Positions 1 to 50,760 of a stretch of DNA of 64,000 nucleotides are shown piece by piece. Position 1 is the first letter of the stretch. Every line of letters starts with the position of its first letter. Position numbers and translations under genes: made by a program. The DNA is from Eledone cirrhosa. Taxonomy: Eukaryota. The notes below the pieces were generated by a model that was given only the letters and a program-made list of their open reading frames with translations, made no database searches and was not told where the DNA came from. The stretch lies in contig OZ024742.1 of the NCBI GenBank assembly GCA_964016885.1, forward strand, positions 65,100,001 to 65,164,000, given 5' to 3'.

Positions 1-759
1 CTTTACTGTATTGGTTAGGCGCATGTTATCATGACACCAGCACTACTGTCAGCTGCACTATGTACCAGCAGATCATTTGGAAAATGCTGCATTTGATGGA
101 CTGGTTTTGCTATCAAGGGAAAAAATTTAACTTTCATTTTCTATGTGTTTCTGGGCAGAATACTATATTCTACATTACCACAGTAGTTCTCATGTGGTGT
201 GACAACTAAGTACCACTAAATTATCTGGGAATGTTACTTCATGTGAAAGGCTGCTGTGAAATTTTTTCCTCATCCTTTCTGTGAAGTTATTACACTCATC
301 ATCACCATTTTTACATCAACTTTTCCATGCTGGCATGGGTTGGACAGCACTTTTTATAGACAATATTTTACAGCTGGATGCCCTTCCTGACACCAACCCT
401 TTTAGTTGCTTCTAAAAACATGCACATGGCAGGGATATAGTGGACCAATTCTAAACTGGGTTCACATTATTTCTCTTCAGTTAGCTGTCAGAATGAATAG
501 GTACCACAGATTATCTGGGGATAAGCTAATATCCTATTCAGGGAGAATTTATATCTCATATGTTTAATATATGCATTATTTTCCTTACTCTGTGTTGATA
601 TCTCTCAGGTTGCCTGCTGTAACACAATTGTTTAGTTACTTCCTTAGAAACTAACATGAAGGGCTTTTTCCCAGTAGTCATTAGAAAATTCAAGGAATTT
701 TAAGAATTTTATATTCTCTATTGCTATCTTTCATGGCTGCTTCAGTTTATCAAGGTTTT

Positions 760-763
<4 letters not shown>

Positions 764-836
<73 letters not shown>
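764..836. repeat. (CT)n microsatellite
   Basis: Pure CT dinucleotide run; source of the ER-repeat ORFs at 731-1005. Confidence 0.95.
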
Positions 837-839
<3 letters not shown>

Positions 840-1915
840 TAATACACACACAGTCCACTGAAAATAATGATATGTGCATGAGTGGGGTAAGAGAAGTTGT
901 CTCTCTCTGTACAATCCACCTAAGGCTAACGATATACAGGAGTGACACTGGGAGATCTCTCTCTCTCTCATCACTCTGATTGATCGACAAGATCGCAGAC
1001 CTCATTCACTTGCCGAGTGGGGTTGACCTCATCAAATCAGACCAAGGAAAATATGTTTCCATTGGTCTTTCCATCGATGATACTATCTACCAGTCGCAAC
1101 TCCTGGCAGAAAGAGCACTGTGAAATAAAGTGTCTTGCTCAAGGGCACAATGCATCACCTGGTCTGAGAATTGAACTCATAACCTCATGATCGTGAATCC
1201 AACTCCCTAACCACTAAGCCACATGCCTTCACAATCCATTAAAGGTAGTCCACTAAAAATAGTGATGATATGTGAAAGTGAGACTGGGGGATGTCTCTCT
1301 CTTTTACCTACTACTGTCCAGTCGACTAAATGGTGAGACAGGAGTCTTAAGTCTCTTCTATTCTCATCATCATCATCATCTAGCATGGATTTCTCAATTG
1401 TGCAAGAGGCAGAGATAATGGCTTCTACCATTTCTATGTATTGATGAGATCAATAGCATTCTGAACCTCTTCAGATCACAAAGAATGGATATGGTATTAC
1501 ATAACAATGAAACATTTGTCAACTTCAGTGTTACTGTTAACTCTTTCATAACCTCATAACCATATATTTTTAATGAAAGACACTGACTATGATTTTTAAT
1601 TAATTTTGAAAATAATCAAGACTTTGGTAGGATTTAGTAATATAACTTTCTCATTATTAAACTGGTGTTTGGATCATAACTTCACAAAGTTTCTTACATA
1701 CAATTATTATGGAACATTTAAAAATAAATATGAAGGGTTTTGCATCCTAGAACTAGAGGCAGGTTCAGAAGGTTTTGTATCAAAAGTGAGAGAGAGCCAG
1801 AAAGAGAGGACTGTACCCACACTATTTCTGTGTGTTTTAGTAACTTTAATTAAACATCATATTGTTTTTTAAACCAGAAAATGATTATTAATGCATTGTT
1901 CTTTGTTTCCTGAAG

Positions 1916-1996
1916 ATGGCACCACACACTCAGTCTGTTGTCATGGCAACTAACTGGGACCGACCATATTCCAGAGAAACAGCAGCATTTCCTGCC
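1916..1996 (+). CDS. GLDC: Glycine decarboxylase (glycine cleavage P protein), penultimate coding exon
   Basis: ttcctgaag|ATG...GCC|gtaagt; 81 nt, phase 0/0; [27 protein letters not shown] contains the GLDC/GcvP C-terminal W-D-R-P-Y-S-R-E-x-A-A-F-P motif. Confidence 0.93.
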
Positions 1997-2278
1997 GTAA
2001 GTACTTCATTGATGAATTTTATTTATGATTCTAGTGATTCAGACCTATGATCAAATTTTTGAAGCACTGTATCTTGAATTGCATTCATCATCATCATTGA
2101 ATGGCATTAAATATCTGAGGCAGGTTTTCTATGGACAGATGCCCTTCCTGAGGACATCTGTTACTGCTAATGTTCATTGAACTGCTAAACTGTAAGATGT
2201 GTTATTTATGGTGATTATATACATACTTCTTTTTGTATAAATGGTGACAATGTGGCATTCATGGCATCTAACATACTC

Positions 2279-2320
<42 letters not shown>

Positions 2321-2956
2321 ATATAAACCAAGCCAAAATCAGTTCTATATGAGCAAGACATGGTCATCTGACCTTGACTCAAACCTGTCTAATCCATGCT
2401 AGCATGGAAAATGGATGTTAAACGGTGATGATATATATATGTGTGTGTGTGTGTGTGTATATATATTAGGAAGGGCATCCAGCCGTAGAAAACCTGCCAG
2501 ATAGTCCTATACAAACGAGACATGGTCACCTGACAAATCTTGCCTCAAGTGTGACAATTCCCGTCTAACCCATGCTAGCATGGAAGATAGACGTTAAATG
2601 ATGATGATGCACCTCTTACAACATGCAAGGATGTGGTGTGCCTATTCTAAACTGGATATATACTGTCATAAGTGATGTCTTTAATGTCTAGTTTTTATTT
2701 TATTCATGATACCTCAACATTAATTTTCCATTATGTAGCAATTGGATATTGTCATATTTATGCCTTTCACAAGGGTATTTCTATCATCATCATTGTTTCA
2801 ATGATGCTTTTACTCTACTAGTATGAGTTGGATAGGTTTGCACAATAGTATATCACCCACTGTTTTGATCCAGTGTCATCTCTTCAGTAAAGCCCAATAT
2901 CATGAAATCTAATTTTACTGCAACTTCTTCAAATCAACACTGGAACCATTATACTC

Positions 2957-3145
2957 AACCTGCTTGAAATACCAGCCAAATATTCCTTAAATCACAAAAA
3001 AGAAGGATGCAGCAAATCTTTAAAAAGTGAGGACACATTCGATAATGTAGTTGAAGAAATTGTAAGAATAAAAGACCAGATGTTCATAGCCAGTTTATCT
3101 TTGACCATGGGTCTGCTAGATTATGGCTGACCTGAGGTTAAATAA
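2957..3145 (+). mobile_element. Unclassified dispersed repeat ending in (AAC)n-like tail (SINE/LINE 3' end)
   Basis: Motifs acctgctagaaatagcagccaaat...tttgatcataggtctgct...gacctggggctaaacaacaac recur at ~32110-32305, 37795-37950, 39063-39225, 53915-54070, 55300-55463 (+) and ~54405-54540, 55835-55985 (-). Confidence 0.6.
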
Positions 3146-3302
3146 TAATATTATTAATATATTAATAACTTCTTAAATACTCAAAAGGACCCTGATTGAG
3201 CCCTCAAATATTTCTTCTCATCACACCATTCATGCACCTCAGTCAGAGAAGAATCAATTTCTTCCAAAAGCTGCAAGAATTTGTATGTCTGTTTGTCCGC
3301 AT

Positions 3303-3390
3303 CATTTGTGTATTATTCTATGTACTATATTGACGAGTTGTAGTGCACCTGAGCACTTTACACAATAATTTCATTATTATTATTATTATT
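3303..3390 (+). mobile_element. CR1-like LINE extreme 3' end with (ATT)n tail
   Basis: ttattctatgtactata...gagttgtagtgcacctgagcac...caataatttc(att)n matches the 3'UTR of the longer CR1-like fragments at 48384-48708 and 52660-53031. Confidence 0.8.
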
Positions 3391-3607
3391 GAATGCTATG
3401 GTTGACGGAGGCTCGGCTCTGTAAGGTATTGTAAATTTTGAACACTATAACAATTGTAAATTGTTTAAAACTTTAACGAACTTGTAGACAAAAACACCCT
3501 CCTCCTCGTGAGAGGGGTCTTTCTGCCCGTTATTTGGCCCTTCGGGGTTAAATAACTGCTTATTGGGGTTTTGTGCCCAATATTTATTTTAAACAAAAAA
3601 AAACAAC

Positions 3608-5686
3608 ATGGCTACGAAAAAGAATTTTCATAGGTCACTCCCACTCATTCCGTCTTCTTCTTCCTCAATCATCACTACAGCAGAGAGAAGATTGTCTCTC
3701 TCCCTCCCTTCTTTAAATGTGTCTCTCTCCCTCCCTTCTCTTTCGCAAGCGACGACAAAAAAGAAAAGTCTCGTGCAAAGCGTGCAAGATTTCTCCACGA
3801 CGACGACGACAACGACGAAACAGGTGTGCGGGAAATACGAAAACCCATTTCATTCGTCTGACGTCAGGAATAATAGCAGTAGCAGCCGTAATAACAACAG
3901 CAACAGTGACAATGAAAACAACAGTAGCAGCCGCAACAGCATCACCAGCAGCATAAACAACAACAGCATTAGCAGCAGCAACACCAACAACAACCACAGC
4001 AACAGCGGCGGAGGCAGTAGTCATAGTACCTGCAGCAACAACAAAAGTAACAGCAGCTCTGACGACAACAACAACAACAGCAGCAAAGAAAAACCAATCT
4101 CGTTTGCAGGTATCGCGAAGAACCTGGAAACAATCCTCATAACAAATGAGGAATTAGAGGAAGCGAAGAAGATGGTGACAAAAACTGGACACCAAGCAAT
4201 CTGCAAGGCAGCGGAAAAATTTTTAGAAACCTAACAGCACTGTACGGTCACGTACCGTACAGTAAGTACAAAATCCCGTAGGGTTGAAAGAGCCACAGAG
4301 GCTCAAATACAAAAAGCCTTGGGGTCTGTGTGGCAGCGGAAAACGCACATCACCCGAGGCAAAAAATATGCCACCGTAGACGTACTTTATGCCACACCCC
4401 AGGAGGCAAAGGCTCAATCCGTAGTGACCCTAAGGAGCGAGGAAATGGTGTTGGTGCCCTCCTACTGCGGGTAAAAAATTGTGAGGGTCAAACTGACCCA
4501 CGTCCTCCCCGGGATGGCCCCTTCTTGGCTGGCCGCGTCTGTCCTCGTCGGAATCGAGGACAAAACAACTGTACTGCAAGTACAGAAAAAAGTAAGAGAA
4601 GATTGGGTCGGCACCTCCATTGAGATGTTAATCCAAACCAACCAGGAGTGCATCGAAGCTATCACGGATGTGATAGACTTCGATAACGGCACTCAACTGC
4701 CCATAAGTGTTGAGGGCAAACGCCCGAAATGCTTTTGCTGTGGATCGAAGACTCACCTCAGGGCCTTCTGCAACGAGAAAACCCTGAGAAAGGAGAAAAC
4801 CCCCCTCCTTCCGAAACCGGCTCCACGGCTACCAGCAACAGAACAAGCGGCAACCAGGAACGATAGGTCCGTGGCACCCATACCCACGCCACGGAAATCA
4901 AAAACAGCAGCAGCAGTGGAAATATTAATACCAAATGCAGCTGCAACAGAGAGTCCAGTGCAAACATCACCAACAACAACAAGTGAAAGAGTGGAGCTGG
5001 TACCCCTCCCCGACCTCACAGAATCAGACATGGAGTGTGAGGTGGGAGAGGGATGGCAAAAGGTCGTAAGAAGGCACAAACGCAGAAGCAGCGCATCGTC
5101 GCCTTTGAAAAGGGAGGAAAGAAATGAGAAAAGGGTAAAGTCTACTGCAAAGAGACTCACAGCAGCAACACCATCACCACCCACACTAGCACCACCATCA
5201 CCACCGGCGACAACCCCACCGCCAACAACACCTTCAACACTACCACCACAAGCACCAACATCGCAAACACAACAACAAAACACACACACCCAGCAACAAC
5301 GACAAGAAAATAGCGGAACCACACCCCACCCCCAGAAAAACAAATGCACGGCAATAAATACACACAACAAGAAACTAATGACTTACATAATTGAACACAC
5401 AGACATTTCACAACACGACTACATAATACCAGCACCAATCAAAACGCCAACTAACATAAGACTGATAAAAATAGCACAGAAACAATACACAAACATTAAA
5501 ACGAAATTCCCCAACGCAGTTGGTGATTTCAGGGACCTAGGAGGAACTATCAATCGAAGAGTATATTCGGACATACTCATAGAAGAGCCGACGACCAGCC
5601 GAAGGGACGATTCAACGGTCCCTTCACCAGACGATCAAGTGAAAAGGGATGTAAAAACCATCCCTCCTCTACGAAAAGTACGGTAA
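3608..5686 (+). pseudogene. Tx1 copy A ORF1 (gag-like, CCHC zinc knuckle), two in-frame stops
   Basis: ORFs 3608..4234 and 4481..5686 are in the same frame. Reading through TAA 4232-4234 and TAA 4472-4474 aligns to copy B ORF1. CFCCGSKTHLRAFC = C-x2-C-x4-H-x4-C. Confidence 0.88.
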
Positions 5687-5721
5687 GTGGTCTTTCCCAT
5701 CTTTTCCACTCTATTTTAAAC

Positions 5722-8700
5722 ATGACCTCACTCAGAATAGGCAGCATAAATGCGCGTGGATTGGGGTCGTCATGGAAGCAGGGTCACCTGCTCAACGACC
5801 TCAGGTCACTAAACATAGATGTAGTGGCCATCAGCGAGACCAGAATCTCTGAAGCATGGGCCTTCGCACCGATCTTCGGCGGCTACGATGTGTACGCATC
5901 TCCCAGCCGTCCTGGATCGGGGGGAGGAGTTGCTGTGCTTTTTCGGAGAGGTTTGGATCTCGCCATACGGGCCATCTTCCTGGACCCAGAGGGTAAGCTG
6001 GTGGTGCTCGACGTGACCAGCGGAGACGGGCAAGCTTTCAGGCTAGTGGCCGTCTATGCCCCGACAGGAGCAGGGCGGCCTGATTTCTTCCGGCGTCTGG
6101 AGACCTTTCTTGGAACGTCCCGCTCTTTAGTGTTAGTGGGCGACTGGAACGGGATCTTAGATGCAGGCTGGGACTGTGTGGGATTAGCGGATAGGGGTGG
6201 AGGGTGCAAGAGCCTCACCAACCTGCTCAGGCGTTTTGAACTGTCTGACAGGTACCGATTGGATTTCCCGAATGTGCCAATGTGGACTTGGACAAATCGC
6301 ATAGGGTCATCCAGATCATATCTAGATAGAGTATTTTGTAGGGAAATAGATAGGTCTAGCATAGGCTGTCCACAATTCAAGATAGTCAGCTACACGGACC
6401 ACAAATTCGTGATCTGTGTGCTTGACTTAGATAGGCTTCATAGACGAGGACCCGGCTACTGGAAGCTAAACGCGTCCTTACCAGCGCGCAAGGCCTACAG
6501 AGACCGGATTAGCGAACTAGTTAAGCGGGCGTTGACGGGGGCCATCGTCAACAAGTGGTGGTTTGCTCTGAAAAGAGCGATTAGAATAGAATCCATTAGG
6601 TTTAGTAAGACTTTAGCAATAGAGAAAAATAGAGCAGAGGGAGAATTAGTTAGAAAATTAGACGAGGCGCTTAGCAAAGGCTTTGCGACCGACGTGCTTG
6701 CGGAGAAATTGGCCCTTGACCAATTCTTCAATGCAAAGCACGAAGGCTGCGCTGTCAGAGCAAGGGTGCGTGCTCTCAGACACGAGGGGGCGAAAGCCGT
6801 TCAATGGGCTCGAGTGGCGGAGGTGCGTCGTGGCAACAAAGCCACGATCCGGTCTTTGGTGGACCACGATGGGCGCATGCTACTCGATCCCGGGCAAATG
6901 TGTGAAGCTTTTCAGTGACACTTCGCTCAGCTGTTCGGGGGCAGCGGTGGGCCGGGTCGAAGGATGGACTTTAGTGTCTACCTCGACGGACTGCCGCGGC
7001 TCTCGGCCACTGAGGCGAAGTGTTGCGAAAAGCCGATAACAGCCGCTGAAGTACGGGAGGCAATGACTGGCTGCACAAGGGGTAAATCGCCTGGTTTGGA
7101 TGGTCTGCCCTATAAACTTTACGTACAGATGCCAGACTTGTTCGGAGGCCTCTTGGCGGACGTCTACTGCAACTGGCAACAGAAAGGGAGAATTCCCAGT
7201 TCTGTGAGCCGAGGAGCGGTGGCACTTCTGAGAAAGGATCCGAACAAGGGGGATAACATAGATAATTTCCGGCCCATAACTCTGCTAAACACAGAGTTCA
7301 AGATTTTGGCCAAGGTGCTAGCAAAGAGGTTGGCGCTTGTCGTTGGTGGTCTGGTGGGAGTGGCGCAGACATGCGCAATTCTCGACAGATCTATCCACGA
7401 CAACCTCCACCTCATGCGATACATCGTAGAGAGGGTAGCTAGGGAACCTGGCACGGGTGGGTCCTTGATAAATTTAGATCAGTCGAAAGCTTTCGATAGG
7501 GTCGACCATCGTTACCTAGCGGCAGTCCTGAGGGCGGCTGGCTTTGGGCCCGTCTTCAGAGGCTGGATCGCTGCCATGCACAGCGACATCTGCTCTGTGG
7601 TGAGAGTGAACGGTCACCTGTCGGAACCGTTCAACATCATGCGCTCGGTCCGCCAAGGATGTCCCCTCTCGTCCCTCTTGTACGTATTGACTCTCGAGCC
7701 ATTACTGCACAAACTGGAGACGTTGAGGGGCGTCCCGCGCGAACTAGGATGCGGAAGATCCGTGTCAGCATATGCCGACGATGTCACCGTAGTGGTGTCG
7801 AACGCCAAACACATCGAGGCGATTGGCACTACACTAAGAGAATACGAAGCGGTAACAGGAGCAATGATCAACCAGGAAAAGTCAGTGGGCCTGCAGCTCG
7901 GCACCTGGAAAGGCAGGTCCATGCCGTCCAACAGCGTCGTCGGACGCTGGACGGACGGACCGGTTAAATTGCTAGGGGTCTGGTTCGGTCCGGACCTCCA
8001 GACGGAGAAAAACTGGGACGAGGTGACGAGCAGGGTGGCTTCTCTCACCCAGAAATGGGCGGAGAGGAAGCTATCCCTGAAAGGTCGAGCGGAGGTGGCT
8101 AACGCGTACATCGCGTCTGTCATCTGCTACCGCCTGACCATCGTACCTTGTCCTAAGCCTCGCCTGACTGCGCTGGAGCGTTTGCTCTTTCGCTTTTTGT
8201 GGAAGGGACGCGCTCCGATGGTCAGGCGGTCCATCTGTTGTCAACACCCGCTACGTGGAGGGCTGGGCATGCCGTGGCTGATGATGCTCAGGCTACGACA
8301 TCTCCACCTCTTCCTCGACGGTGATCAGGTGTGGTCGCCGTTTGCTAGACACGTTTTTCCCCAGCTCGTTTCCTTGACGGAGCTGCAGTCCTGGGTCAAG
8401 CGAAGACCGAGAGGGAGCGCCTGGAGACTGGAATGTCTTCAGGCGCTCACAGCCCTCGACCAATCGGGCAATGTGATCGGTGGAAACTCCACCTCGGCGT
8501 TCTATAGAGGATTAGTGGAGGGGAAGAGCGACGACGTACTTGGGGAAACTCTAGGCGTTGACGAAAACCAACTAGCCATTCTCTTCGGAAGAACTTTCGG
8601 GCCGGGGCCTATGGACAACTTCCAGAAATCTCTGGCCTGGCAGTGCTACCGAGGAGCCTTGCCAGTTCGGGATAAACTCTACAGGCATGGAGGTGCCGTC

Positions 8701-9126
8701 AACCGGGCATGTCCGAGATGCGCGCAGGGCAACGAAACCGTCCTGCACGCACTCGTCCAGTGTCCGAAAATTGCTGACTTGTGGGTTTATGTCGAACACC
8801 TGCTGTCGCGTTTAGGACGGATCCGGCTATCATCTGAGTCCATCGTGAGGATTGCCCCGCCCTCCTCCTTTAGCCGGGAAGGGCAGGCAGTTTTTATCTG
8901 CCTGGTGGCCATGGCGAAAGAGATAGTATGGTGGACACGTTTGAAAGGGCTGAAGACGAGCACTTACCTCTTCGGTGATGCTCTGATTGACTTTTTCAAA
9001 TTTCATTTGAAAAGGAAAATCAGAGTAGAGAGGGAAGTGCTCTCTTCCCAGCATTTTGTTGAAAGATGGGTGAGAGAAGCAAGAATGGCCCGAGTGAATG
9101 GGCCTACTCTGAGTATATATCTGTAA
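5722..9126 (+). pseudogene. Tx1 copy A ORF2: APE endonuclease + reverse transcriptase + C-terminal Cys/His finger; one premature stop
   Basis: SINARGL, ISETR, GDWNG, YLDRVF, TDH (APE); KSPGLDG, FRPITLLN, DQSKAFDRV, RQGCPLS, YADD (RT); CPRC..ETVLHALVQC. TGA at 6916-6918 where copy B has CGA. Confidence 0.93.
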
Positions 9127-9393
9127 ATTAAAGGTGGAAAACTGGGAGAGGGCACTTGCCTTGGTGGTCAGGGTCATTGTGGCTTTTTACTGGGCTTTCT
9201 CCACAAATGTCCCTCGGAAGTCTCCCCCCTATTGGGGAATTTTTCATTGTTATTTTTGTTACATCCTCTGTTTTTGTTTTTTACACGCAGAAATGCCCAT
9301 TTGTACCGTCCTGCATTGTCCTGCACTGTCCTTAATGTCTACTTTATGTAAACCCTTGTGGTTAATAAAGAAATCATTATTATTATTATTATT

Positions 9394-10453
9394 TTTATTC
9401 CTTGAATCTCAGTCATTGATGTTGGTTAACTGGAAAGTCCGTTGGATTGAATATCAAGCCACTACCTGCAGCCTCAGATATTCAGGACGTATCGGAGGGT
9501 TCTTGCTGTTCCAAGCAAGCATGCCTTTTGAAGCGTTCCAAAAAGCGTGAAGGGGCCGATTTTCTTTAACCATCCCTGGAAACTTTTGGAGATAGTCCCC
9601 AGTGCGCCTATGACAATCGGGATCACTTTGACTTCATGGCAGTTCCAAATCCTTTTCACCTCCCACTTTAGGTCCTGGTATCGGTTAATTTTCTCCCTCT
9701 CCTTCTCTTGCACTCTCGTGTCGAACGGGCAGGCCACATCCACAATCAGACACAATCTTTTTTCTTTGTCCACAACCACCAGGTCAGGTCTATTGTGTTC
9801 CAGTTTTTTGTCCGTCTGTATCCTAAAATCCCACAGCACCTTCACCTGATTGTTCTCCATCACCGCCTCTGGCCTATGCTCATACCATTTCTCAGAATGT
9901 GGTAAATTGTTTACTTTGCACAGGTGCCAGTGGATCACCCTGCCCATCACATCGTGTCTCCAGCCCTTATAGTGGGTCTGGGCTAGGTGTTTACACTCGG
10001 ACACAATGTGAGCCACAGTCTCCTCTCTCTCTCCACAGATCCTGCACAGTGGGCTAGCCTCCTCCTTGTAAATATGGTGCTTCAACCACTTCGTTTTGAG
10101 GGCCTGCTCCTGCGCAGCCATTAGCATTCCTTCTGTAGCCTTTTTGAGGTCTCCTCTTCTCAACCAGTTCCATGTCTGTGGATCTCTAAATTCAGTTTTC
10201 TCAAAGAAGGTACTATGAAGGGATTTTCCCTTAAGGCTGCTCTTCCTCCTTGATGTTATTTCCTCCTTGGACATCCCCTGGCCTACTGTCCCCTCCTTCA
10301 GTACAGTTCTGAGCATTGGCTCCTTACTATAGGTCACGTATTTGTATAGGTTGTTTTTCTCCATCTGAACACAGTCCTCTATGCTGATAAGACCTCTTCC
10401 ACCCTCAGATCTCCTTAGGTAGAGTCTATCGACATCACTCCTCTTGTGGAACA

Positions 10454-10455
<2 letters not shown>
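9394..10455 (-). mobile_element. 5'-truncated R4/Dong-like non-LTR retrotransposon (RLE type) with (TAA)n tail
   Basis: Carries ORF 9474..10454, a short 3'UTR with AATAAA (9394-9399 on -) and (AAT)n on both sides. Confidence 0.85.
9474..10454 (-). CDS. C-terminal fragment of R4-clade ORF (end of RT/thumb, CCHC finger, PD-(D/E)xK restriction-like endonuclease)
   Basis: DRLYLRRSEGGRGL; AAQEQAL; CRIC..ETVAHIVSEC; RHD; WDF..TD..HNRPDLVVVD; DVACP; EKINRYQDL; IPIVIGALG. No internal stops over 326 codons. Confidence 0.88.

Positions 10456-10502
<47 letters not shown>
10456..10502. repeat. (ATT)n microsatellite separating the R4-like element and Tx1 copy B
   Basis: ~15 perfect ATT units; similar tracts at 3373-3390, 9376-9393 and 16364-16396. 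Confidence 0.95.
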
Positions 10503-10710
10503 GGCGACCTACTTAGTAAATCGTATCATCGTGAGCTCCGCAAAGGTTTGTTATTTCCGTTTGTTAAAAATTGTCATTTATGGAAAATTTTATTGTTAAC
10601 TGTTTATAAGCGCACATACATTGTTTTCCGAAAAGGACACCCAAAAAGATTGGGGCCTTGTGCCCAAAATTTTAACTTTTATTATTATCCAAAAATTTCT
10701 TTGAAAAAAA

Positions 10711-12705
10711 ATGGCTAATTCCCCTCTGCACGAAGCAGCTGAAAGCCTTCCTCACAAAATAACACCTCACACCGACACCACCATTGTAAATGTTACTACG
10801 TTTGCCAACACAAAAAAAAATATAAGCAGTAGCAATATTTTAAATTTGTCTCAGGCAGACATTCATTTCCCGCCATTACCAATGACTGCAGGTGTTAAAG
10901 CCTCCACCACCACCACCACCGCGACAACCACCACCCCCACCACCACCGCGACAACAGAAACAAAAGAAGAAAAAAATAAATTAACTCGTGATGTCGAAAT
11001 GAAATCAAGCAAAATGGACTCTTCCGCACCAAAGACGAATGACGTCACCACCACCACAACTGAAACAAAAATTAAGATTAACACAAATAACGATAGTAAC
11101 AACAACAACAATGACATTATAAAACCGACCCTCAGTTTCGCCATCGTAGCAAAACAATTCGAAGCGTTCACGGTAACTCAAGAAGATTTAGAAAATGCCA
11201 AACAAATGGTAAAGAAAGATGGGTACAGGGTCAGCCTCACCCCCCCACCTAATAAAATGGAGCATCGGCGCCTGTGCACCGTGTCGTATAGAACAATAAA
11301 TGTAAAATCGCGCCGAGTGGAACGGGCATCCGAGTCCCAAATCCAAAAAGCTTTGGGACATGTGTGGGCAAGAAAAACCCACATCAGACGTGGGCAAAAG
11401 TATGGAACCGTGGATGTGTTCTTTGAAATACCAGAGGAGGCTAGAGAACACTCCATGGCCCCATTAAAAAGTGACGACCTCACACTCGTCCCAAGCTATT
11501 GTGGCCAGAGACTCGTAAAGATCAGGGTGACCCACGTTCCACCGGCCATCGAAATTCCCTGGCTAATAGCGGCTGTCCTCGCCGGCATCGAAGCCAACAC
11601 GAAAATAATAGCAGTAGCAAAAGAAAAGCAGGAAAACTGGTCTGGATCTGGGATGGAGCTCCTGATCCAAGTGGACCAAAAAAGCATTGAGGAGATCCCA
11701 GAGGTAATAGACCTCACTGACGGCAGCCACCTCACGGTAATTGTCGAGGGCAGAAGACCTAGGTGTGTCGTTTGTGGTGAAGGAACCCACCTAAGGGCTT
11801 TCTGCCCTCAGGCTAAAAGGTTGAGGCCACCTCTCCTACCCACCCCAGTGACACAACCATCAACACCACCAGTAGCAGAGATGGCAGCAACAACTGTAGC
11901 AGCAACAACAGAAGCAACTATAACAGCAACAACCCCAGCAACAGTAGCAAAACCAACACCACTACCACCACCAGCAAAACCAACACCACCACCACCCAAC
12001 GCTTCAGAACTAGCACCAGCGCCTACACCATCCACCACACCACAACCAAAACTAACGGCTGTGGAGGATTTTCCACTCCCCGGCCTATCACAACTGGAGA
12101 CAGATTGTGACGACGAGGAGTGGGAAACGATATCCGGAAAAAAAAAAAGAAACCAAAAAAGAAAAAATTCTCTTCCTTCCCCCTCCAAAAACAAAATACA
12201 GATGGAAACAAATAAACTAAGAAACAAAAAAGTTAGGACAGATATGCCACCATCCATACCAGCATCACCAACCCCATCAACCCAAACACCAACACCATCA
12301 CCATCATTAACTCCAACACCACCATCACCTACACCACAAAAGTCACCAAAATGCGAAACAGAAACAAAACCACAACAAATGCAAACAAAACAAAACAACC
12401 AAAACGATACACACTACACAGCATTAAATTTGAACAACAAGCAATTATTACACTACATCCAACACAACACCAGCATCACAGAAAAAGACTACACAACAAC
12501 CCCAAAATTCACACCACCTCCACACATACAAATCACTCGCATCACACAGAAAACGTACATGACACTAAAACAAAAATTCCCCAAAGACATCGGAGACTTC
12601 CGACAAGCACTCTCCAGGAGGATTTATAAGGACATCCCTCCTGAGGAGGCCACAAGCAGTGAAAAGGATGGAAAAGCCGTCCTTCCCCTACGAGAAGTAA
12701 GGTAA
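10711..12705 (+). CDS. Tx1 copy B ORF1 (gag-like nucleic acid-binding protein, CCHC knuckle), intact 664 aa
   Basis: Uninterrupted ORF; CVVCGEGTHLRAFC knuckle; EEWETISGKKKR basic motif; Pro/Thr-rich linker; homologous to copy A ORF1. Confidence 0.88.
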   Translation: MANSPLHEAAESLPHKITPHTDTTIVNVTTFANTKKNISSSNILNLSQADIHFPPLPMTAGVKASTTTTTATTTTPTTTATTETKEEKNKLTRDVEMKSSKMDSSAPKTNDVTTTTTETKIKINTNNDSNNNNNDIIKPTLSFAIVAKQFEAFTVTQEDLENAKQMVKKDGYRVSLTPPPNKMEHRRLCTVSYRTINVKSRRVERASESQIQKALGHVWARKTHIRRGQKYGTVDVFFEIPEEAREHSMAPLKSDDLTLVPSYCGQRLVKIRVTHVPPAIEIPWLIAAVLAGIEANTKIIAVAKEKQENWSGSGMELLIQVDQKSIEEIPEVIDLTDGSHLTVIVEGRRPRCVVCGEGTHLRAFCPQAKRLRPPLLPTPVTQPSTPPVAEMAATTVAATTEATITATTPATVAKPTPLPPPAKPTPPPPNASELAPAPTPSTTPQPKLTAVEDFPLPGLSQLETDCDDEEWETISGKKKRNQKRKNSLPSPSKNKIQMETNKLRNKKVRTDMPPSIPASPTPSTQTPTPSPSLTPTPPSPTPQKSPKCETETKPQQMQTKQNNQNDTHYTALNLNNKQLLHYIQHNTSITEKDYTTTPKFTPPPHIQITRITQKTYMTLKQKFPKDIGDFRQALSRRIYKDIPPEEATSSEKDGKAVLPLREVR

Positions 12706-12739
12706 GTGGTCTTTCCCATCTTTTCCACTCCTTTTCAAC

Positions 12740-15700
12740 ATGACCTCACTCAGAATAGGCAGCATAAATGCGCGTGGCTTGGGGTCGTCATGGAAGCAGG
12801 GCCACCTGCTCAACGACCTCAGGTCACTAAACATAGATGTAGTGGCCATCAGCGAGACCAGAATCTCCGAAGCACAGGCTTTCGCACCGATCTTCGGCGG
12901 CTACGATGTGTACGCATCTCCCAGCCGTCCGGGATCGGGGGGAGGAGTTGCTGTGCTTTTTCGGAGAGGTTTGGATCTTGCCATACGGGCCATCTTCCTG
13001 GACCCAGAAGGTAAGTTGGTGGTGCTGGACGTGACCAGCGGAGACGGGCAAGCTTTCAGGTTAGTGGCCGTCTATGCCCCGACAGGAGCAGGGCGGCCTG
13101 ATTTCTTCCGGCGTCTGGAGACCTTTCTTGGAACGTCCCGCTCTTTAGTGTTAGTGGGCGACTGGAACGGGATCTTAGATGCATGCTGGGATTGTGTGGG
13201 ATTAGTGGATAGGGAAGGAGGGTGCAAGAGTCTCACCAACCTGCTCAGACGTTTTGAACTGTCTGACAGGTACCGAATGGATTTCCCGAATGTACCAATG
13301 TGGACTTGGACAAATCGCATAGGGTCATCCAGATCATATCTAGATAGAGTATTTTGTAGGGAAATAGATAGGTCTAGCATAGGCTGTCCACAATTCAAGA
13401 TAGTCAGCTACACGGACCACAAATTCGTGATCTGTGTGCTTGACTTAGATAGGCTTCATAGACGAGGACCCGGCTACTGGAAGCTAAACGCGTCCTTACC
13501 AGCGCGCAAGGCCTACAGAGACCGGATTAGCGAACTAGTTAAGCGGGCGTTGACGGGGGCCATCGTCAACAACAAGTGGTGGTTTGCTCTGAAAAGAGCA
13601 ATTAGAATAGAGTCCATTAGGTTTAGTAAGACTTTAGCAATAGAGAAAAATAGAGCAGAAGGAGAATTAGTTAGAAAATTAGATGAGGCGCTTAGCAAAG
13701 GCATCGCGACCGACGTACTTGCGGCGAAATTGGCCCTTGACCAATTCTTCAATGCAAAGCACGAAGGCTGCGTTGTCAGAGCTAGGGTGCGTGCTCTCAG
13801 ACACGAGGGGACGAAAGCCGTTCAATGGGCCCGAGTGGCGGAGGCGCGTCGTGGCAACAAAGCCACGATCCGGTCTTTGGTGGACCACGACGGGCGCATG
13901 CTACTCGATCCCGGGCAAATGTGTGAAGCTTTTCAGCGACACTTTGCTCAACTGTTCGGGGGCAGCGGCGGGCCGGATCGAGGGATGGACTTTAGTGTCT
14001 ACCTCGACGGACTGCCGCGGCTTTTGGCCACTGAGGCGGAGTGTTGCGAAAAGCCGATAACAACCGCTGAAGTACGGGATGCAATGACTAGTTGCACAAG
14101 GGGTAAATCGCCTGGTTTGGATGGTCTGCCCTATGAACTTTACGTACAAATGCCAAACTTGTTCGGAGGCCTCTTGGCGGACGTCTACTGCAACTGGCAA
14201 CAGAACGGGAGAATTCCCAGCTCTGTGAGCCGAGGAGCGGTGGCGCTGCTGAGAAAGGATCCGAACAAGGGGGATAACATAGATAATTTTAGGCCCATAA
14301 CTCTGCTAAACACAGAGTTCAAAATTTTGGCCAAGGTGCTAGCAAAGAGGTTGGCGCTTGTCGTTGGTGGTCTGGTGGGAGAGGCACAGACATGCGCCAT
14401 TCCCGACAGATCCATCCACGACAACCTCCACCTCATGCGATACATCGTAGAGAGGGTAGCTAGGGAACCTGGCACGGGTGGGTCTTTGATCAATTTAGAT
14501 CAGTCGAAAGCCTTCGATAGGGTCGACCATCGTTACCTAGCGGCTTTGGGCCCGTCTTCAGAGGCTGGATCGCTGCCATGCACAGCGACATCTGCTCTGT
14601 GGTGAGAGTGAACGATCACCTTTCGGAACCGTTCAACATCATGCGCTCAGTCCGCCAAGGATGTCCCCTCTCGTCCCTATTGTACGTATTGACTCTCGAG
14701 CCATTACTGCACAAACTGGAGACGTTGAGGGGGGTCCCGCGCGAACTAGGATGCGGAAGATCCGTGTCAGCATATGCCGACGATGTCACCGTAGTGGTGT
14801 CGAACGCCAAACACATTGAGGCGATCGGCACTACACTAAGAGAATACGAAGCGGTGACAGGAGCAATGATCAACCAGGAAAAGTCAGTGGGCCTGCAGCT
14901 CGGCACCTGGAGAGGCATGTCCATGCCGTCCAACAGCGTCGTCGGGCGCTGGACGGACGGACCGGTTAAATTGCTAGGGGTCTGGTTCGGTCCAGACCTC
15001 CAGACGGACAAAAACTGGGACGAGGTGACGAGCAGGGTGGCTTCTCTCACCCAGAAATGGGCCGAGAGGAAGCTATCCCTGAAAGGTCGAGCGGAGGTGG
15101 CGAATGCGTACATCGCATCCGTCATCTACTACCGCCTGACCGTCGTACCTTGTCCTAAGCCCCGCCTGACTGCGCTGGAGCGTTTGCTCTTTTGCTTCTT
15201 GTGGAAGGGACGCGCTCCGATGGTCAGGCGGTCCATCTGCTGTCAACACCCGCTACGTGGAGGGCTGGGCATGCCGTGGCTGATGATGCGCAGACACGCG
15301 CTCAGGCTACGACATCTCCACCTCTTCCTCGACGGTGATCAGGTGTGGTCGCCGTTTGCAAGACACGTTTTTCCCCAGCTCGTCTCCTTGACGGAGCTGC
15401 AGTCCTGGGTCAAGCGAAGACCGAGAGGGAGCGCTTGGAGACTGGAATGTCTTCAGGCGCTCACAGCCCTCGACCAATCGGGCAATGTGATCGGTCGAAA
15501 CTCCACCTTGGCGTTCTATAGAGGATTAGTGGAGGGGAAGAGCGACGACGTACTTGGAGAAACTCTAGGCGTCGACGAAAATCAACTAGCCAATCTCTTC
15601 GGAAGGACTTTCGGGCCGGGGCCTATGGACAACTTCCAGAAATCCCTGGCCTGGCAGTGCTACCGAGGAGCTTTGCCAGTTCGGGATAAACTCTACAGGC

Positions 15701-16140
15701 ATGGAGGTGCCGTCAGCCGGGCATGTCCGAGATGCGCGCAGGGCGACGAAACCGTCCTGCACGCACTCGTCCAGTGTCAGAGCATTGCTGACTTGTGGGT
15801 TTATGTCGAACACCTGCTGTCACGTGTAGGACGGATCCAGCTATCAGCTGAGTCCATCGTGAGGATTGCCGCGCCCCCTTCCTTTAGCCTGGAAGGGCAG
15901 GCAGTTTTTATCTGACTAGTGGCCATGGCGAAAGAGATAGTATGGTGGACACGTTTGAAAGGGCTGAAGACGAGCACTTACCTCTTCGGTGATGCCCTGA
16001 TTAACTTTTTCAAATTTCATTTGAAAAGGAAAATCAGGGTAGAGAGGGAAGTGCTCTCTTCCCAGCATTTTGTTGAAAGATGGGTGAGAGAAGCAAGTAT
16101 GGCCCGAATGAATGGGCTTTCTCTGAGTATGTGTCTGTAA
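12740..16140 (+). pseudogene. Tx1 copy B ORF2 (APE-RT-finger), frameshifted
   Basis: Near-identical to copy A ORF2. 19-nt deletion (agtcctgagggcggctggc) between 14544/14545 with ggc microhomology; TGA at 15913-15915 (TGC in copy A). Confidence 0.93.
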
Positions 16141-16362
16141 ATTAAAGGTGGAAAACTGGGAGAGGGCACTTGCCCTGGTGGTCAGGGCCACTGTGGTCTT
16201 TTAATGGGCTTTCTCCACAAATGTCCCTCGGAAGTCTCCCCCCTATTGGGGAATTTTTCTTTGTTATTTTATTTCAACCTCTGTTTTTTTACACGCAGAA
16301 ATGCCCATTTGTACTGTCCTTAATGTCTACTTTATGTGAACCCTTGTGGTTAATAAAGAAAA

Positions 16363-16396
<34 letters not shown>

Positions 16397-16445
16397 TATT
16401 TTACTTGACATTTTTCAATTTTATTTTTCAATTTTATTTTTCTAG

Positions 16446-16613
16446 TCATTTATCAGAACAGACAATAAACTGTGGCCAGCTGTTGGTAGGATAGATGATG
16501 TCTATGGTGACCAGAATCTTGTGTGTACGTGCCCACCAATGGAAGTTTATGAATCACCCTTCATCAAAGAATCAGCCAATGAAAATCTACAGCAAAGAAG
16601 AGTGTCCAATTAA
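16446..16613 (+). CDS. GLDC: Glycine decarboxylase, last coding exon
   Basis: ttttctag|TCA...TAA; in frame with the previous exon; [39 protein letters not shown]...RRVSN* has the GcvP terminal W-P[20 protein letters not shown] motif. Confidence 0.95.
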
Positions 16614-17177
16614 ATTGAAGGATGGGAAAGCAAATTATATAATCTAGGAGAAAACAAACAAAAATCATGTTTTTATATATATATAAAATTACGGGTGGAT
16701 TTCTCTCCCTCTCTCTATATATATAGATTTGGTGGGTGTTACCAGTTGACTAGTAAGACTATATTCAGCTAAGTACTCAATACTTGGCAAAATAGAGTTA
16801 AAAGTTAGTGCCTGAAAGTAGAGTTAAAAGTTATTGCCTGATGGTTGAGCTCATGCCATTTCAGCAGCGAATAGATAACATTGAAAAAGCATGAGCTCAG
16901 CCCTCTGGCACTAACTTTTTATATATATATATATATATAAAAGAAATTATATTTTTGGATACACTATATATGTGTGTGTGTGTGTGTGTGTATTTTGGAA
17001 TGTACAAATGAGAAGGAAATTATTACTCAATACATGCAGTAGAGTATATTTTTGGTAATTTGAAGCTTGAGGCTTCACTGTATATTTCCTGCAATTACAC
17101 ATTCTTTAAGATATGAAGGAAACAGGAAAACTTGAGGTAGCAATAATTGAGTACAAAACCTCAACTTCAAAGGAATG

Positions 17178-27340: not shown

Positions 27341-27958
27341 TATATACACACACACACATACATACACACAATTACTACTGTGTGTAGACTGTGCATATCA
27401 TATGGCTACACTTAATTTTTTTTAAATCTTTATATTTATTTCAGTTCATTATTTCCACTCTTTGTTTCTTCTTTTTCTTCTTCTTTGTTTTCAACTTATC
27501 TTTTCCTATGAAGGTTTTTCAAGTGACAAAACTATGCCAGGCTGTGTTTAGCTGCTGGAGGAGCACTAGATGGAGAGAGTACAAGCTGCTTTATTGCTGT
27601 TTCTGTTAGGAGGAGATTATTTATATAAAAACAGGAGTACCAAAGATAAAAAAAACAACATGTAAGGACATCTGGAGGAATACTTCCTTCATTTTGTTGT
27701 TGTTGTTGTCTCTTCTGATACGCTAGCTCATATCTCACATCCAAAATATATAAAACAGGATACATATGTAGATATGTATATGTGCGTGTGTGTATATATG
27801 TTCATCACACAGGCACATATAAATGTGTCTAAGCTCAAAGGCAAAATACAGAGATCTTGTATTGAAATATTGTTTTCCTCTTTACATTTATTGGTCTATT
27901 TTGTCTCTTGTATATGTATGCCTGTATGTATGTGTGCATACATGTATGTATATGTGTT

Positions 27959-30242
<2,284 letters not shown>

Positions 30243-31015
30243 AAATACATGTGGCCTTGATTTTCCTTTTCTTTTTGTCACATTTTAGAAAATAAATGCA
30301 TGAAGTTGAAATGGTTTCACAGTCCATTGGTCAATGGTGTTTGGTTACTGTTGTTGTGGACGTGATGGTTAGGGAGGGGGCACGGTAGAAGGCGGGGAAG
30401 CGAAGGAAGCCTGGGTACAATATACAGGAACATGACCAGTGTTTGGTGATTGAGGATCTGAGATAGATAGATATAAAGATAGAGAGGCTTCTCGGTACTG
30501 TGGAATGGCATGGAAAGACACATCTTGGTTATCAGTATTAATATTATTATAATAATAATTAATTACATTCATTGTTATCATAATTATTATTTTCAGTGAC
30601 GAGTCAGTTTTTGTCTTCTCTCAATTCTTAGAAACAAAAAAAATCAAAAAAAAAAAATCAATAAAATGAAAGATTATCAAACAAAATGTTTTGTTTGATA
30701 AGATGCTGCTGTGGTTATTGTTTTGTGTAATAAGGCAATAATAATGATAAATTAACCACCCCAACCCTAAAAAAACCAACAAAAAAATTTCTTTTAAGAG
30801 AAAGGAAGAAAAATTTTCTAATAAAAGCTCCAGTTAACTGAAGCAGTTGTATTTGTTGTATTCATTATTATTATTATGATTATTATTATCCTTATTATTA
30901 TTTAATGTGGTAAGTAAAAAATTTGTTTAATTAAAAAAAATGTAACAAAAGAAAACAAATATACAAAAGAATGTAAGAGTATGTGTATGGGGGAAAGAAA
31001 GAAGGATGGGGGATG

Positions 31016-41599: not shown

Positions 41600-43849
41600 G
41601 TAGGATATTACATTTTTTACCCCAGTAATGATTAACCCCCTTCAACACTATTGCTACTGTATTTATAATAAAATTATCATTGTCATCATCATCATCATCA
41701 TCACCGATTACCGTCTATTTTCCATGCTTGCATGGGTTAGACTTGCTGAAGTGTTATGGGGCCAGACAGGTCAGGTGACCACGCCTTGTTCATATGCTCC
41801 ATTTTTGGCTTGGTTTTCTTTGGCTGGATGCCCTTCCTAACATCACTAATCTTACAGGATGAACTGGGAACTTTTTGTTGTGGCACCAGTACGACTATCT
41901 TACAGAGTGGACTGGATGCTTTTTATTGTGGCCCCAGCACTGTTACTTGTCTAATGGTTCAAGTGACTTCTTAAAATAAGCCAAAGATTAGGAGGAATTT
42001 AGCAAAATAACTTTTTCATTAAGTTGATGTCTGGAACATAACAAAAAGTTCTTACATAAAATTATGTTGTAAAATTTTAATGTAAACATGAACACTTTAA
42101 AACTGGCAGCTTTATATCAAACAGTAAGGATGGTTTGGTATTAAAAGTGTTACAAGCTGAAAGAATGAAAATAAGGAAGTACTTATTATCTATTCCTCTT
42201 TCAAAAGACTCTTAATTTTCTACTGATCAACATCTAGTCCAGTGAAGGCAAAACTTTTTAACAATCCATTGAAAATTTTAACTTCTTTGATAATCTTGTT
42301 GATGGAGTCATACGTATAAGATAAAATGAAATGAAATGAAATTTACAGCAGGTTTAGCTTGTTTCCTATGATAAGCACCCATTCCTATTATGAAAAGCAA
42401 CATAAAGTGTCTTGCTCAAGAACACAACACACTGCCTGGTCTAAGAACTGAACCCATGACATTATCATGAAAATATTATGTGGTGGACACTGCTGGAACA
42501 TCGTTGATCATAAAACTACAGAATCTTTACTGACCTAGGACTACACAACAAGAATAACCTCCTATGTTTTAAATGATATAGATAATTTTTTTTATATAAC
42601 ATTGTACCAAAATTCATCAAATGTCACAACCAACACAGACATAGGTTTGCAAATTCACTCTCATTGGGACTTTTGTAAGAAAGATCCCTGGTTTGAGAAT
42701 ATCTGTCCTTCCCCCTTGAAAAAAATGTTTTTTTTTTCTTTTTGAATATCTTGGTAGGTATGGTCAGTACTGTATTCTTTCATGTATACTGCATAGTTTT
42801 TTTCCCTTTTTACATTGTTTTGTTTTAAGGATATGTGGTATACACCATAACTGAATGTTTCCAGCCTTTTTTGCAGGCTTTTCCAGACATTTTTCTGGTG
42901 AAAAGGGGGGTGCACATTATACAAAAATGCACACAATACATGGAAGGAGAGGTTGATGACTGCAGCAGTGGACAGGAGAGCCCAGCAAAAGGAGTGCAAT
43001 AAATCCAACAGACCAGAGACTGTCATTCACGCATATAGCCACTGGAGACGCTGCTCCAGCCAAGTTGGCAACAGGATACTACCCATGGTCAGCTTTGACC
43101 AAAGGAGGCCTTAAATTTTAACATGGAAGAATATGGCAGTCTTGTAATAATATAATTAAAAGTTTCGGCAAAACTGCAACGTACATTTAACATAACAGAT
43201 GGAATGTTGGTAGCCAGTGAGCATCACTGTAAAACCTACCATATTTCATTGCAGTATCAGTAGAGGGTCGGACGCCATGCTTTGCAGCAAAGAGTTACGG
43301 CCCTTTATGGTCTGAGTTCAAATCTTGCCAAGGCTAACTTTGCCTTTCATCCTCCTTACGAGGTCGATAAAATAAAGTACCAGTAATGTACTGTGTAATT
43401 GCTGGCCTTGTGCCAAAAGTAGAAACAATTAATTTTACTGTCAAACAATGAAACAATAACAAGCAAAGACAGTTGTGCTGATTTCCAAGATGCAAGAGAA
43501 AGGGAAGGAAGGGAGTTATGATTATGAACGCATACATATTAGATAGGAGAGTTACCTCCCATAGTATAGAAATTTCATATCAGTATATTAGAAATGCAAA
43601 GTAGATACGTAATTAGGAAGACATTGATTGGCATATAAACCGAGCAAGATAAAGAGATATAGATAAACAGCTTTATACACACATACCAAAGTAAGGGTGG
43701 AGAGGGCCCCTGAGTCCAGTAAGACAACCTCTCTAGTGCTGGTGGCACGAATAAAAGCACCCAGTCCATGTTGTAAAGTGGTACTGGTGATAGGAAGGGC
43801 ATACAACCAGTATATTATTAATGCCAAATTATTAGCACAAAATACAAAT

Positions 43850-43884
<35 letters not shown>

Positions 43885-44349
43885 CACACAAAACATGGAT
43901 ACATGATGGCTGCATCTTGATTTCGAGAATTGCCATCACTTAATCTCCCTCCCACATATGGGTGGCATAGAAAAAGACTTTTAGATCAAATAATGCTTGT
44001 GCTTGAACCTTTTTAAGTGAAGAAATGCCTTGTACTGGACCAATCTCACTCTCTGAACAATCGTGACAGGTACCCAAAACGAACAGGTCAACATTATTGG
44101 CTGTCATCGAGTTGCATATATATAAATTCTAAACTACTGGTTTCTACTTCATTGTTATACCAACACTCCGGAATGCACAGGCCTACATGTATACTTCATT
44201 GAGTGCTGTATCCTGTGTTCACTACTGTTGGTTGATTAACTGATACAAAATACACCAAGTATATATATATGTATGTATCCGTAAGAGGTTGACGACAGAG
44301 AAATGAGTACTTAATGCTAAAGTTGAGTTTTAATATTCATTATTATTAA

Positions 44350-44542
44350 GGCGGTGGATTGGCAGTATCGGTAGAGGGTCGGACGCCATGTTTTGAGGCA
44401 TAGTTACGGCCCTTGCCATTCTGAGTTCAAATCCCGCCGAGGTTAACTTTGCCTTTCATCCTTACGGGGTCGATAAAATAAAGTACCAGTAATACACTGG
44501 ATAATTGCTGGCCTTGTGCCAAAAGTAGAAACAATTATTATT
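44350..44542 (+). mobile_element. tRNA-derived SINE family B with (ATT)n tail
   Basis: A-box tggcagtatcgg, B-box gagttcaaatccc, core gcctttcatccttacggggtcgataaa; TSD-like attattattaaggc; copies at 37298-37398, 43248-43430, 49150-49330(-), 50357-50547(-), 50566-50760, 56876-57030. Confidence 0.85.
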
Positions 44543-50356: not shown

Positions 50357-50760
50357 ATAATTGTTTCTACATTAGGCACAAGGCCAGCAATTACCCAGTG
50401 TATTACTGGTACTTCATTTTATCGACCCCGTAAGGATGAAAGGCAAAGTTAACCTCGGCGGGATTTGAACTCAGAATGGCAAGGGCCGTAACTCTATGCG
50501 TCAAAGCATGGCGTCCGACCCTCTACCGATACTGCCAATCCACTGCCTTTCACAAATATCATAATGGTGGTGGATTGGCAGTATCGGTAGAGGGTCGGAC
50601 GCCATGCTTTAGAGCATAGTTACGTCCCTTTACGATCTGAGTTCAAATCCCGCCGAGGTTGACTTTGCCTTTCATCCTTACGGGGTCGATAAAATAAAGT
50701 ACCTGTAATGCACTGGGTAATTGCTGGCCTTGTGCCTTGTGCCTAAAGTAGAAACAATTA
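50357..50760. mobile_element. Head-to-head inverted pair of family B SINEs
   Basis: Minus copy 50357-50547, plus copy 50566-50760, 18-nt spacer; overlapping TSDs. Confidence 0.9.

Follow-up and report, generated by a model that had tools for sequence, protein, structure and literature searches.

Target-specific retrotransposons with unrelated nucleases can share a host locus: R1, which carries an apurinic/apyrimidinic endonuclease (APE), and R2, which carries a restriction-like endonuclease (RLE), both occupy the 28S ribosomal DNA, at separate fixed sites, in the same orientation and with no renewal of the target. The locus described here lies in a 64,000-nucleotide stretch of the genome of Eledone cirrhosa (assembly GCA_964016885.1, contig OZ024742.1, forward-strand positions 65,100,001 to 65,164,000; hereafter, the window), where Tx1-like and Dong/R4-like long interspersed elements (LINEs) are stacked within the last intron of the glycine decarboxylase gene, GLDC. 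It resembles R1/R2 in bringing an APE and an RLE family to one repeated locus, but here a single repeat is shared, from opposite strands, and the target appears to be renewed. Our reading, which we hold to be very probable, is that two large and young LINE families, an APE-bearing Tx1-like family and an RLE-bearing Dong-like family, occupy the same (ATT)n/(AAT)n microsatellites on opposite strands, and renew their target as they insert.

Each component of this arrangement has a described counterpart. TRAS1 and SART1, in the telomeres of Bombyx mori, likewise enter one simple repeat in opposite directions (PMC7265360); both, however, are APE elements and telomeric, whereas the families considered here have unrelated nucleases and use dispersed microsatellites derived from other elements' tails. 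Dong elements, with Dong (Bombyx mori), DongAg and DongBg listed in PMC3812793, target TAA repeats, as the original prediction for this stretch had stated and as PMC7998251, PMC3812793 and PMC3774820 agree; the TAA target is found in most insects, molluscs and cnidarians (PMC7998251), and how microsatellites are targeted at the molecular level is described as poorly understood (PMC3812793). The element in the window is like the Dong/R4 clade in its single open reading frame (ORF), reverse transcriptase (RT), C-terminal RLE, lack of an N-terminal zinc finger and (TAA)n target, a comparison made without a curated Dong sequence; it differs in that its target is held in common with an APE family and mixed stacks are formed. 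The prediction had also stated that some Tx1-group families are microsatellite-specific, in agreement with the available text of PMC4494074, which gives the targets (TC)n for Kibi, (TTC)n for Koshi and (TTCC)n/(TTTC)n for crocodilian Tx1. These elements share with ours two ORFs, an APE-RT-CCHC ORF2, a microsatellite at both flanks and a fixed strand; the difference is the target, (ATT)n and, in a sister family, (ATCT)n, neither of which was found in that portion of the text. In Octopus vulgaris, Dong-R4 is reported to be abundant and to have been active recently (PMC13282606), and both Dong-R4 and L1-Tx1 as abundant and young in octopus (PMC13282606, PMC8967140, PMC9115989), the available text of these papers containing no target analysis. 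No literature report was found of an ATT-specific Tx1 family, of such a family sharing Dong's target, or of target choice by cephalopod Tx1 or Dong elements; this coverage does not extend to Repbase, to Kojima and Fujiwara 2004 or to the figure labels and supplements of PMC4494074, which may bear on the question.

The stack comprises the following features:

3302..3372, plus strand: 3' stub of a CR1-type LINE, 71 nt, with 8 further copies 82-100% alike
3373..3390, plus strand: (ATT)6 tract, the CR1 tail and 5' flank of A (from sequence)
3391..9375, plus strand: Tx1-like element A, full-length, with an APE-RT-CCHC ORF2; older subfamily
9376..9399, plus strand: (ATT)6-TTT-ATT tract, where A and the Dong-like element meet tail to tail (from sequence)
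9400..10455, minus strand: Dong/R4-like element, 5'-truncated, last 1056 nt, 99.5% identical to a full-length natural copy
10456..10502, plus strand: TT+(ATT)15 tract, where the truncated Dong-like element meets B head to head (from sequence)
10503..16363, plus strand: Tx1-like element B, full-length, with an APE-RT ORF2; younger subfamily
16364..16396, plus strand: (ATT)11 tract, the tail of B (from sequence)

This order, CR1 tail-(ATT)6-A(+)-(ATT)6-Dong-like(-)-(ATT)15-B(+)-(ATT)11, was borne out with every tract and element in its place and with no element interrupting another; the stack is confirmed as real, and the first reading of it holds. Some of its wording requires adjustment. Every junction had been described as pure ATT, but the second contains a single TTT unit, matching the degenerate tail that the Dong-like element itself carries. 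The elements do come from different clades insofar as Tx1-like and Dong-like are concerned, but A and B are subfamilies of one family. Likewise, A, B and the Dong-like copy are docked in ATT repeat, but the tract is seeded by the CR1 stub, which does not itself target ATT, given that its 5' junction has no ATT and that un-invaded CR1 tails hold only 1-5 units (8 tails). The four tracts of the window together contain approximately 40 ATT units, against the 1-5 of CR1 tails, and (ATT)6 immediately upstream of a random position is found in 59/798,080 cases.

Beyond the window, the two families keep to opposite strands. Junctions were collected from 308 fetched loci, the window excluded, and 124 of these junctions were flanked on each side by a library element; as the loci had been chosen by element, the set informs on orientation, not frequency. 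Tx1(+)/Tx1(+) junctions numbered 40, Tx1(+)/Dong-like(-) 32, Dong-like(-)/Tx1(+) 29 and Dong-like(-)/Dong-like(-) 20, with three rows showing a plus-strand Dong-like end and none a minus-strand Tx1. The Tx1-like elements thus always lie on the ATT strand, and the Dong-like elements almost always on the AAT strand; the three discordant rows most likely represent a 5' inversion (L236) and a strand-changing tract (L310). Mixed arrays, the count of which had been proposed as a check, are frequent. The same triple as in the window recurs at two loci (L269, L308), and a CR1-seeded stack at another (L255). Among 57 Tx1 tails picked irrespective of flank, 16 adjoin a Dong-like tail, 6 a Tx1 head, 1 a spurious 23-nt match and 34 other sequence, much of which consists of the tails of further repeats. 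Tx1-like sequence makes up 6.5%, and Dong-like 1.0%, of 40 evenly picked 10-kb stretches (400 kb), which also contain 30 ATT runs of at least 4 units (median 5). Because the same architecture occurs at many loci and both families are very large, the stack is typical of this genome and not unique. The claim that two unrelated families enter the same microsatellite from opposite strands is therefore upheld by flanks and strand counts, and the flanks in turn suggest that the specificity resides in the nucleases.

The 5' flanks carry much of the evidence. Exact B heads number 1687 genome-wide; 1614 of these directly follow (ATT)2 and 1532 (91%) follow (ATT)4 in phase. The losses are even, with 73 at units 1-2 and 82 at units 3-4, which fits later point mutation, and within the first 100 listed places each of the 10 exceptions retains a tract that is interrupted or short. 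Protection of the two ATT units adjoining the head, as these 10 cases seemed to show (1 vs 9 interruptions), was rejected by the genome-wide 73 vs 82. At the best-scoring loci, window included, ATT precedes 30/30 A heads and 29/30 B heads, the exception being a 3-nt microhomology junction inside a Dong-like copy. All full-length copies with both ends (51/51) have at least 6 units on the 5' side, and most full-length Dong-like heads also follow (TAA)n on the sense strand. Truncated ends cannot carry a leader. By a criterion of at least 4 AAT words (ATT for Tx1) in the last 24 nt, for which the background is 0.36%, 30/38 truncated Dong-like ends follow the tract (truncation points nt 64 to 4446, window copy included), as do 11/20 rows of truncated Tx1 ends, the 20 including 3 internal deletions and 2 rows from one tandem locus. 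The concern that ATT might be only a tail, lacking from the 5' flank of other copies, is answered by these data: ATT is present there, and at many truncation points as well.

Both Tx1-like elements encode an APE endonuclease, RT and zf-RVT. In A, a 5' untranslated region (UTR) precedes ORF1 (3608-5686, with a CCHC knuckle and two stops) and ORF2 (5722-9126, APE-RT-CCHC, with one stop and 3- and 12-nt deletions), and the 3'UTR has AATAAA at 9364. B has an open ORF1 (10711-12705) in a 5'UTR/ORF1 module that differs from that of A, an ORF2 (12740-16140) with a 19-nt deletion and one stop, and AATAAA at 16352. Both window copies are thus broken; an open ORF2 frame of 1152 codons is found in many copies elsewhere. 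The ORF2 regions of A and B are 94.5% identical (last 3.75 kb) and their endonucleases differ at only 4 positions, while 5'UTR and ORF1 are only 40-60% identical, with an abrupt border just upstream of ORF2; the ORF1 cores are 57% identical. Mean ORF2 distances among 47 natural copies are 1.1% within the young B-type, 3.0% within the older A-type and 4.3% between them, and B-like 5' modules at 82-91% ride on the common ORF2 elsewhere. Such a pattern would most simply reflect an exchange of 5' modules. At least three 5'UTR/ORF1 modules (A, B and B-like at 82-91%) were observed on one approximately 95% identical ORF2 (window 3391-5640 versus 10503-12660; L200, L243, L254, L274, L302-L316). Three hairpins at the end of the A 5'UTR (window 3500-3590) fold far better than shuffles (z -4.1), and the GGGG..GCCCAA hairpin motif is also present in the B 5'UTR.

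Tx1-clade ORF1 proteins carry a CCHC knuckle, and here ORF1 has CX2CX4HX4C at aa 368 (protein P0003). Further features of that clade are present, namely two ORFs, an ORF2 made up of APE, RT and a C-terminal CCHC, and a preference for a target sequence. The closest solved structure to ORF2 is human L1 ORF2p (E 7e-53); the protein is 32% identical to one that its source names 'Transposon TX1 149 kDa protein', and its closest named relative is an argonaut protein (72%). A quick RT tree (48 rows, without curated references) leaves its deep forks open and so does not separate Tx1 from other L1-group clades, and a single-sequence fold of the APE domain was unusable (predicted local distance difference test score, pLDDT, 37).

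Dong-like copies were collected genome-wide by protein search. The minus-strand piece in the window spans the end of the RT thumb, a CCHC, the restriction-like endonuclease and the 3'UTR, and its full-length relative is approximately 4.56 kb long with a single ORF of 1141 aa, open in many natural copies. This ORF has a central RT (RVT_1, E 1.7e-23), a CCHC at aa 952 and a PD..D (PD-(D/E)xK) motif at aa 1038; a second segment can be aligned with the endonuclease region of R2, if weakly by itself (i-E 0.064), and R2 proteins are its best PDB matches, above L1. An N-terminal C2H2 zinc finger, as in R2 and NeSL, was seen in 0/25 aligned relatives; the N-terminus has a conserved Trp-rich block at aa 53-122 (W56, W86, W111), with no Pfam match. 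A diverged N-terminal SANT/Myb-like domain (PMC7998251) and a 5' HDV-like ribozyme (PMC3774820) are described for the R4/Dong clade. For the ribozyme, there was no Rfam match, a motif descriptor used without a positive control also found none, and the folds of the first 50-59 nt of the 5' ends are no better than those of shuffled sequence (z -1.4 to +1.6). No protein named Dong or R4 appeared among the matches or cluster members of this ORF. The piece is probably Dong/R4-like, its clade being assigned by motifs and target. Unusual arrangements of this family include a copy whose 5' inversion has the pattern of twin priming, with an (ATT)6 run at the point of inversion (L236:1-2790); tandem units of approximately 5 kb with compound (AAT)n(AAG)n tracts between them (L135, L136; G000:C5:88760000-88780000); and tail-to-tail pairs joined by a tract that changes from (AAT)n into (ATT)n (L310, L312, L107).

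Tract lengths and duplications bear on the claim that each insertion regenerates its target. Median 5' tracts are 9 units for A (n=23) and 18 for B (n=28; P=8e-5), and the median 3' tract is 13 for both, against 5 in random DNA and 1-5 in CR1 tails. Target-site duplications are readable at impure targets, where they measure 13 nt (L082), 49 nt (L022/L065), 42 nt (L190) and 50 nt (L238, which may be a tandem duplicate); at all of these loci the 3' side opens with the duplicated target, with no added tail. Regeneration is supported on both counts, and it is likely that duplication together with a variable tail renews the target.

Target-primed reverse transcription is an established process, and a course of events for the window can be proposed on that basis. 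A CR1-type stub would have inserted close to the GLDC intron's end, leaving behind a short tail of ATT. Private substitutions per kb are 6.6 in A, 3.45 in B and 0 in the Dong-like copy (in 1056 nt), which suggests that Tx1 A inserted first into the CR1 tail, that B then entered the tail of A, and that the Dong-like copy arrived last, between the two, although the order of B and the Dong-like copy is not firm. At each step the endonuclease, which decides the target in related systems according to PMC4494074 and PMC7265360, would nick its own strand of the repeat and prime reverse transcription there. Each insertion leaves tract on both sides, likely through a target-site duplication of approximately 13-50 nt and a variable repeat tail. 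With tract on both sides, one target becomes two, and stacks grow.

Several observations weigh against this account. Truncated Tx1 junctions are less strict than full-length heads (11/20); two insertions (L082 and L068) have no tract at the 5' side, the former being the 13-nt duplication, at a mere ATTAT site; and 8/38 truncated Dong-like ends lack 4 AAT units, most of them being inverted, deleted or rearranged over a short distance where they join. The 5' tracts of B are twice those of A, with equal 3' tracts and endonucleases only 4 positions apart, and plain target duplication does not explain the difference; possible causes are an AUU leader, slippage when the second strand is joined, and age. 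The (ATT)6 at the L236 inversion point indicates that the repeat can arise at a cDNA end without being target DNA. Finally, no joint from 3390 to 16364, as an empty allele would give, was present among the 15 joints listed from public reads and contigs, with 351 further joints outside that list. Tx1 is strongly, not absolutely, ATT-specific. It is possible to suppose, then, that Tx1 brings the 5' (ATT)n itself, as an AUU read-through leader or by RT slippage, that its nuclease needs only a weak ATT-rich site, and that stacking follows from the abundance of tails. The fixed phase at full-length heads, the family-specific length of the 5' tract despite near-identical endonucleases, and the weaker rule at truncated ends all accord with such a leader, as do nicks beside non-repeat sequence (L082, L022/L065, L238) and a locus with a 5' tract of 22 units whose 3' side has one ATT and then (CTT)n (L271). 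Yet 11 of the 17 true Tx1 truncations still follow at least 4 ATT words, the strand rule is strict, and many ATT-tailed neighbours stand on the 3' side, where no leader acts; further, heads with only 3 units exist (L304, L306) and head-adjacent units show no excess purity. We consider a leader unlikely as the explanation in its own right, but it and targeting can both be partly true together.

A purely passive origin would have the elements insert broadly and survive at permissive intron sites, the repeats being mere tails. All three families do end in ATT/AAT tails, and the two families at issue are very abundant, with 44,179 and 45,475 first-look candidates; but the tract at 10456-10502 sits between two 5' ends, CR1 has the same tail yet no 5' tract, and the flank and junction counts (91% of 1687 heads after (ATT)4, and the strand rule) already contradict this explanation, which is left with almost no probability. 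An assembly mis-join or tandem duplication at the microsatellites could also have produced the window stack, and at other loci there are likely tandem duplicates (L238/L239, 98.9%). Contiguity was checked by comparing reads and contigs from 4 of 6 public runs with window positions 2600-16800, three of the runs being one sample and the restriction-site associated DNA (RAD) run barely covering the unique flanks. Contigs end at every tract and no read or contig piece listed crosses the whole stack, which leaves a mis-join conceivable but is evidence neither for nor against contiguity. Against an artefact, the ORF2 regions of A and B are 5.5% apart, their 5' modules differ and each groups with its own subfamily; the flanks are consecutive single-copy GLDC exons, in correct order and phase; and the same architecture recurs at many loci. 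Such an error is very improbable, and opposite-strand targeting by two LINE families is the reading carried forward here.

A sister Tx1-like family, found in the random sample (L209, G000:C3:320000001-320010000), has an endonuclease 63% identical to that of the ATT family, and (ATCT)n at both ends. At least 4 ATCT units lie upstream of the head in 18/20 copies, L209 itself included (family loci L209 and L276-L295), and there are 1120 first-look candidates; the ORFs are intact (643 and 1150 codons), and several copies follow the tails of related elements. Target choice thus follows family, which supports specificity at the level of the nuclease. We lean, with modest confidence, towards a broader interpretation: a previously undescribed guild in which (ATT)n-specific Tx1 elements with exchangeable 5' modules and Dong elements use opposite strands, renew and lengthen the repeat, and form thousands of self-growing stacks, with sister families switched to (ATCT)n. 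As each component has precedent, what is new is the combination, which provides a good test system; the elements themselves are not of a new kind. The case shows APE and restriction-like families arriving at the same three-base repeat, with a likely feedback, in which tails and duplications make new targets, that affects a sizeable share of the genome and can inflate introns tenfold; the last GLDC intron would be approximately 1.5 kb without the 13-kb insert. Young open frames, and endonucleases that are 63% identical with different targets (ATT versus ATCT), make the targeting testable, and sister families would offer natural endonuclease pairs for asking how APE domains read simple repeats.

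Other repeats take part in these tracts. Eight other copies of the CR1 stub run upstream into the C-terminus of a LINE ORF2, and the coding end upstream of one relative (L168) presumably corresponds to CR1 C-terminal motifs, with no Pfam match. At window 39585, 48696 and 49146, CR1-type and short interspersed element (SINE) copies have short ATT/AAT tails of 4-5 units that no element has invaded. A SINE of approximately 190 nt with an ATT tail is common in the same tracts, on the Tx1 strand (window 43251-44533 and 50362-50756, and many fetched loci). Its heads lie in ATT tracts in 13/18 cases at fetched loci, but this SINE is not counted as ATT-specific, as an ATT run was upstream of 0/3 heads from evenly picked DNA. 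Further occupants that recur across the tracts are another Dong-like family and a number of divergent tails of Tx1-like type (L085, L150, L154, L179, L252, L275). An ATTAT pentamer run (L201:2251-2285), possibly a further type of target, lies upstream of a SINE and of a Tx1-like element that is divergent and 5'-truncated, with an endonuclease 61% identical.

The host locus is defined by three features:

1916..1996, plus strand: penultimate coding exon of GLDC (human GLDC aa 904-929, E 1.2e-5; AG/GT borders)
16397..16445, plus strand: native intron end, pyrimidine tract and acceptor AG (49 nt); single-copy together with the exon
16446..16613, plus strand: final GLDC coding exon (human GLDC aa 932-972, E 2.7e-18)

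The exons on either side of the stack match consecutive parts of human glycine decarboxylase, in correct order and phase, and the placement in the last GLDC intron was accordingly correct; the 3' flank has one match in the genome. This intron is 14.4 kb long, of which 13 kb is the insert. The AATAAA signals of A (9364) and B (16352) both lie on the sense strand within it, the latter 93 nt upstream of the acceptor, and premature polyadenylation of GLDC is possible. Elsewhere in the window, positions 27958-30250 contain a 2.3-kb low-complexity array rich in (TA)n/TACA, with a GC content of 9%.

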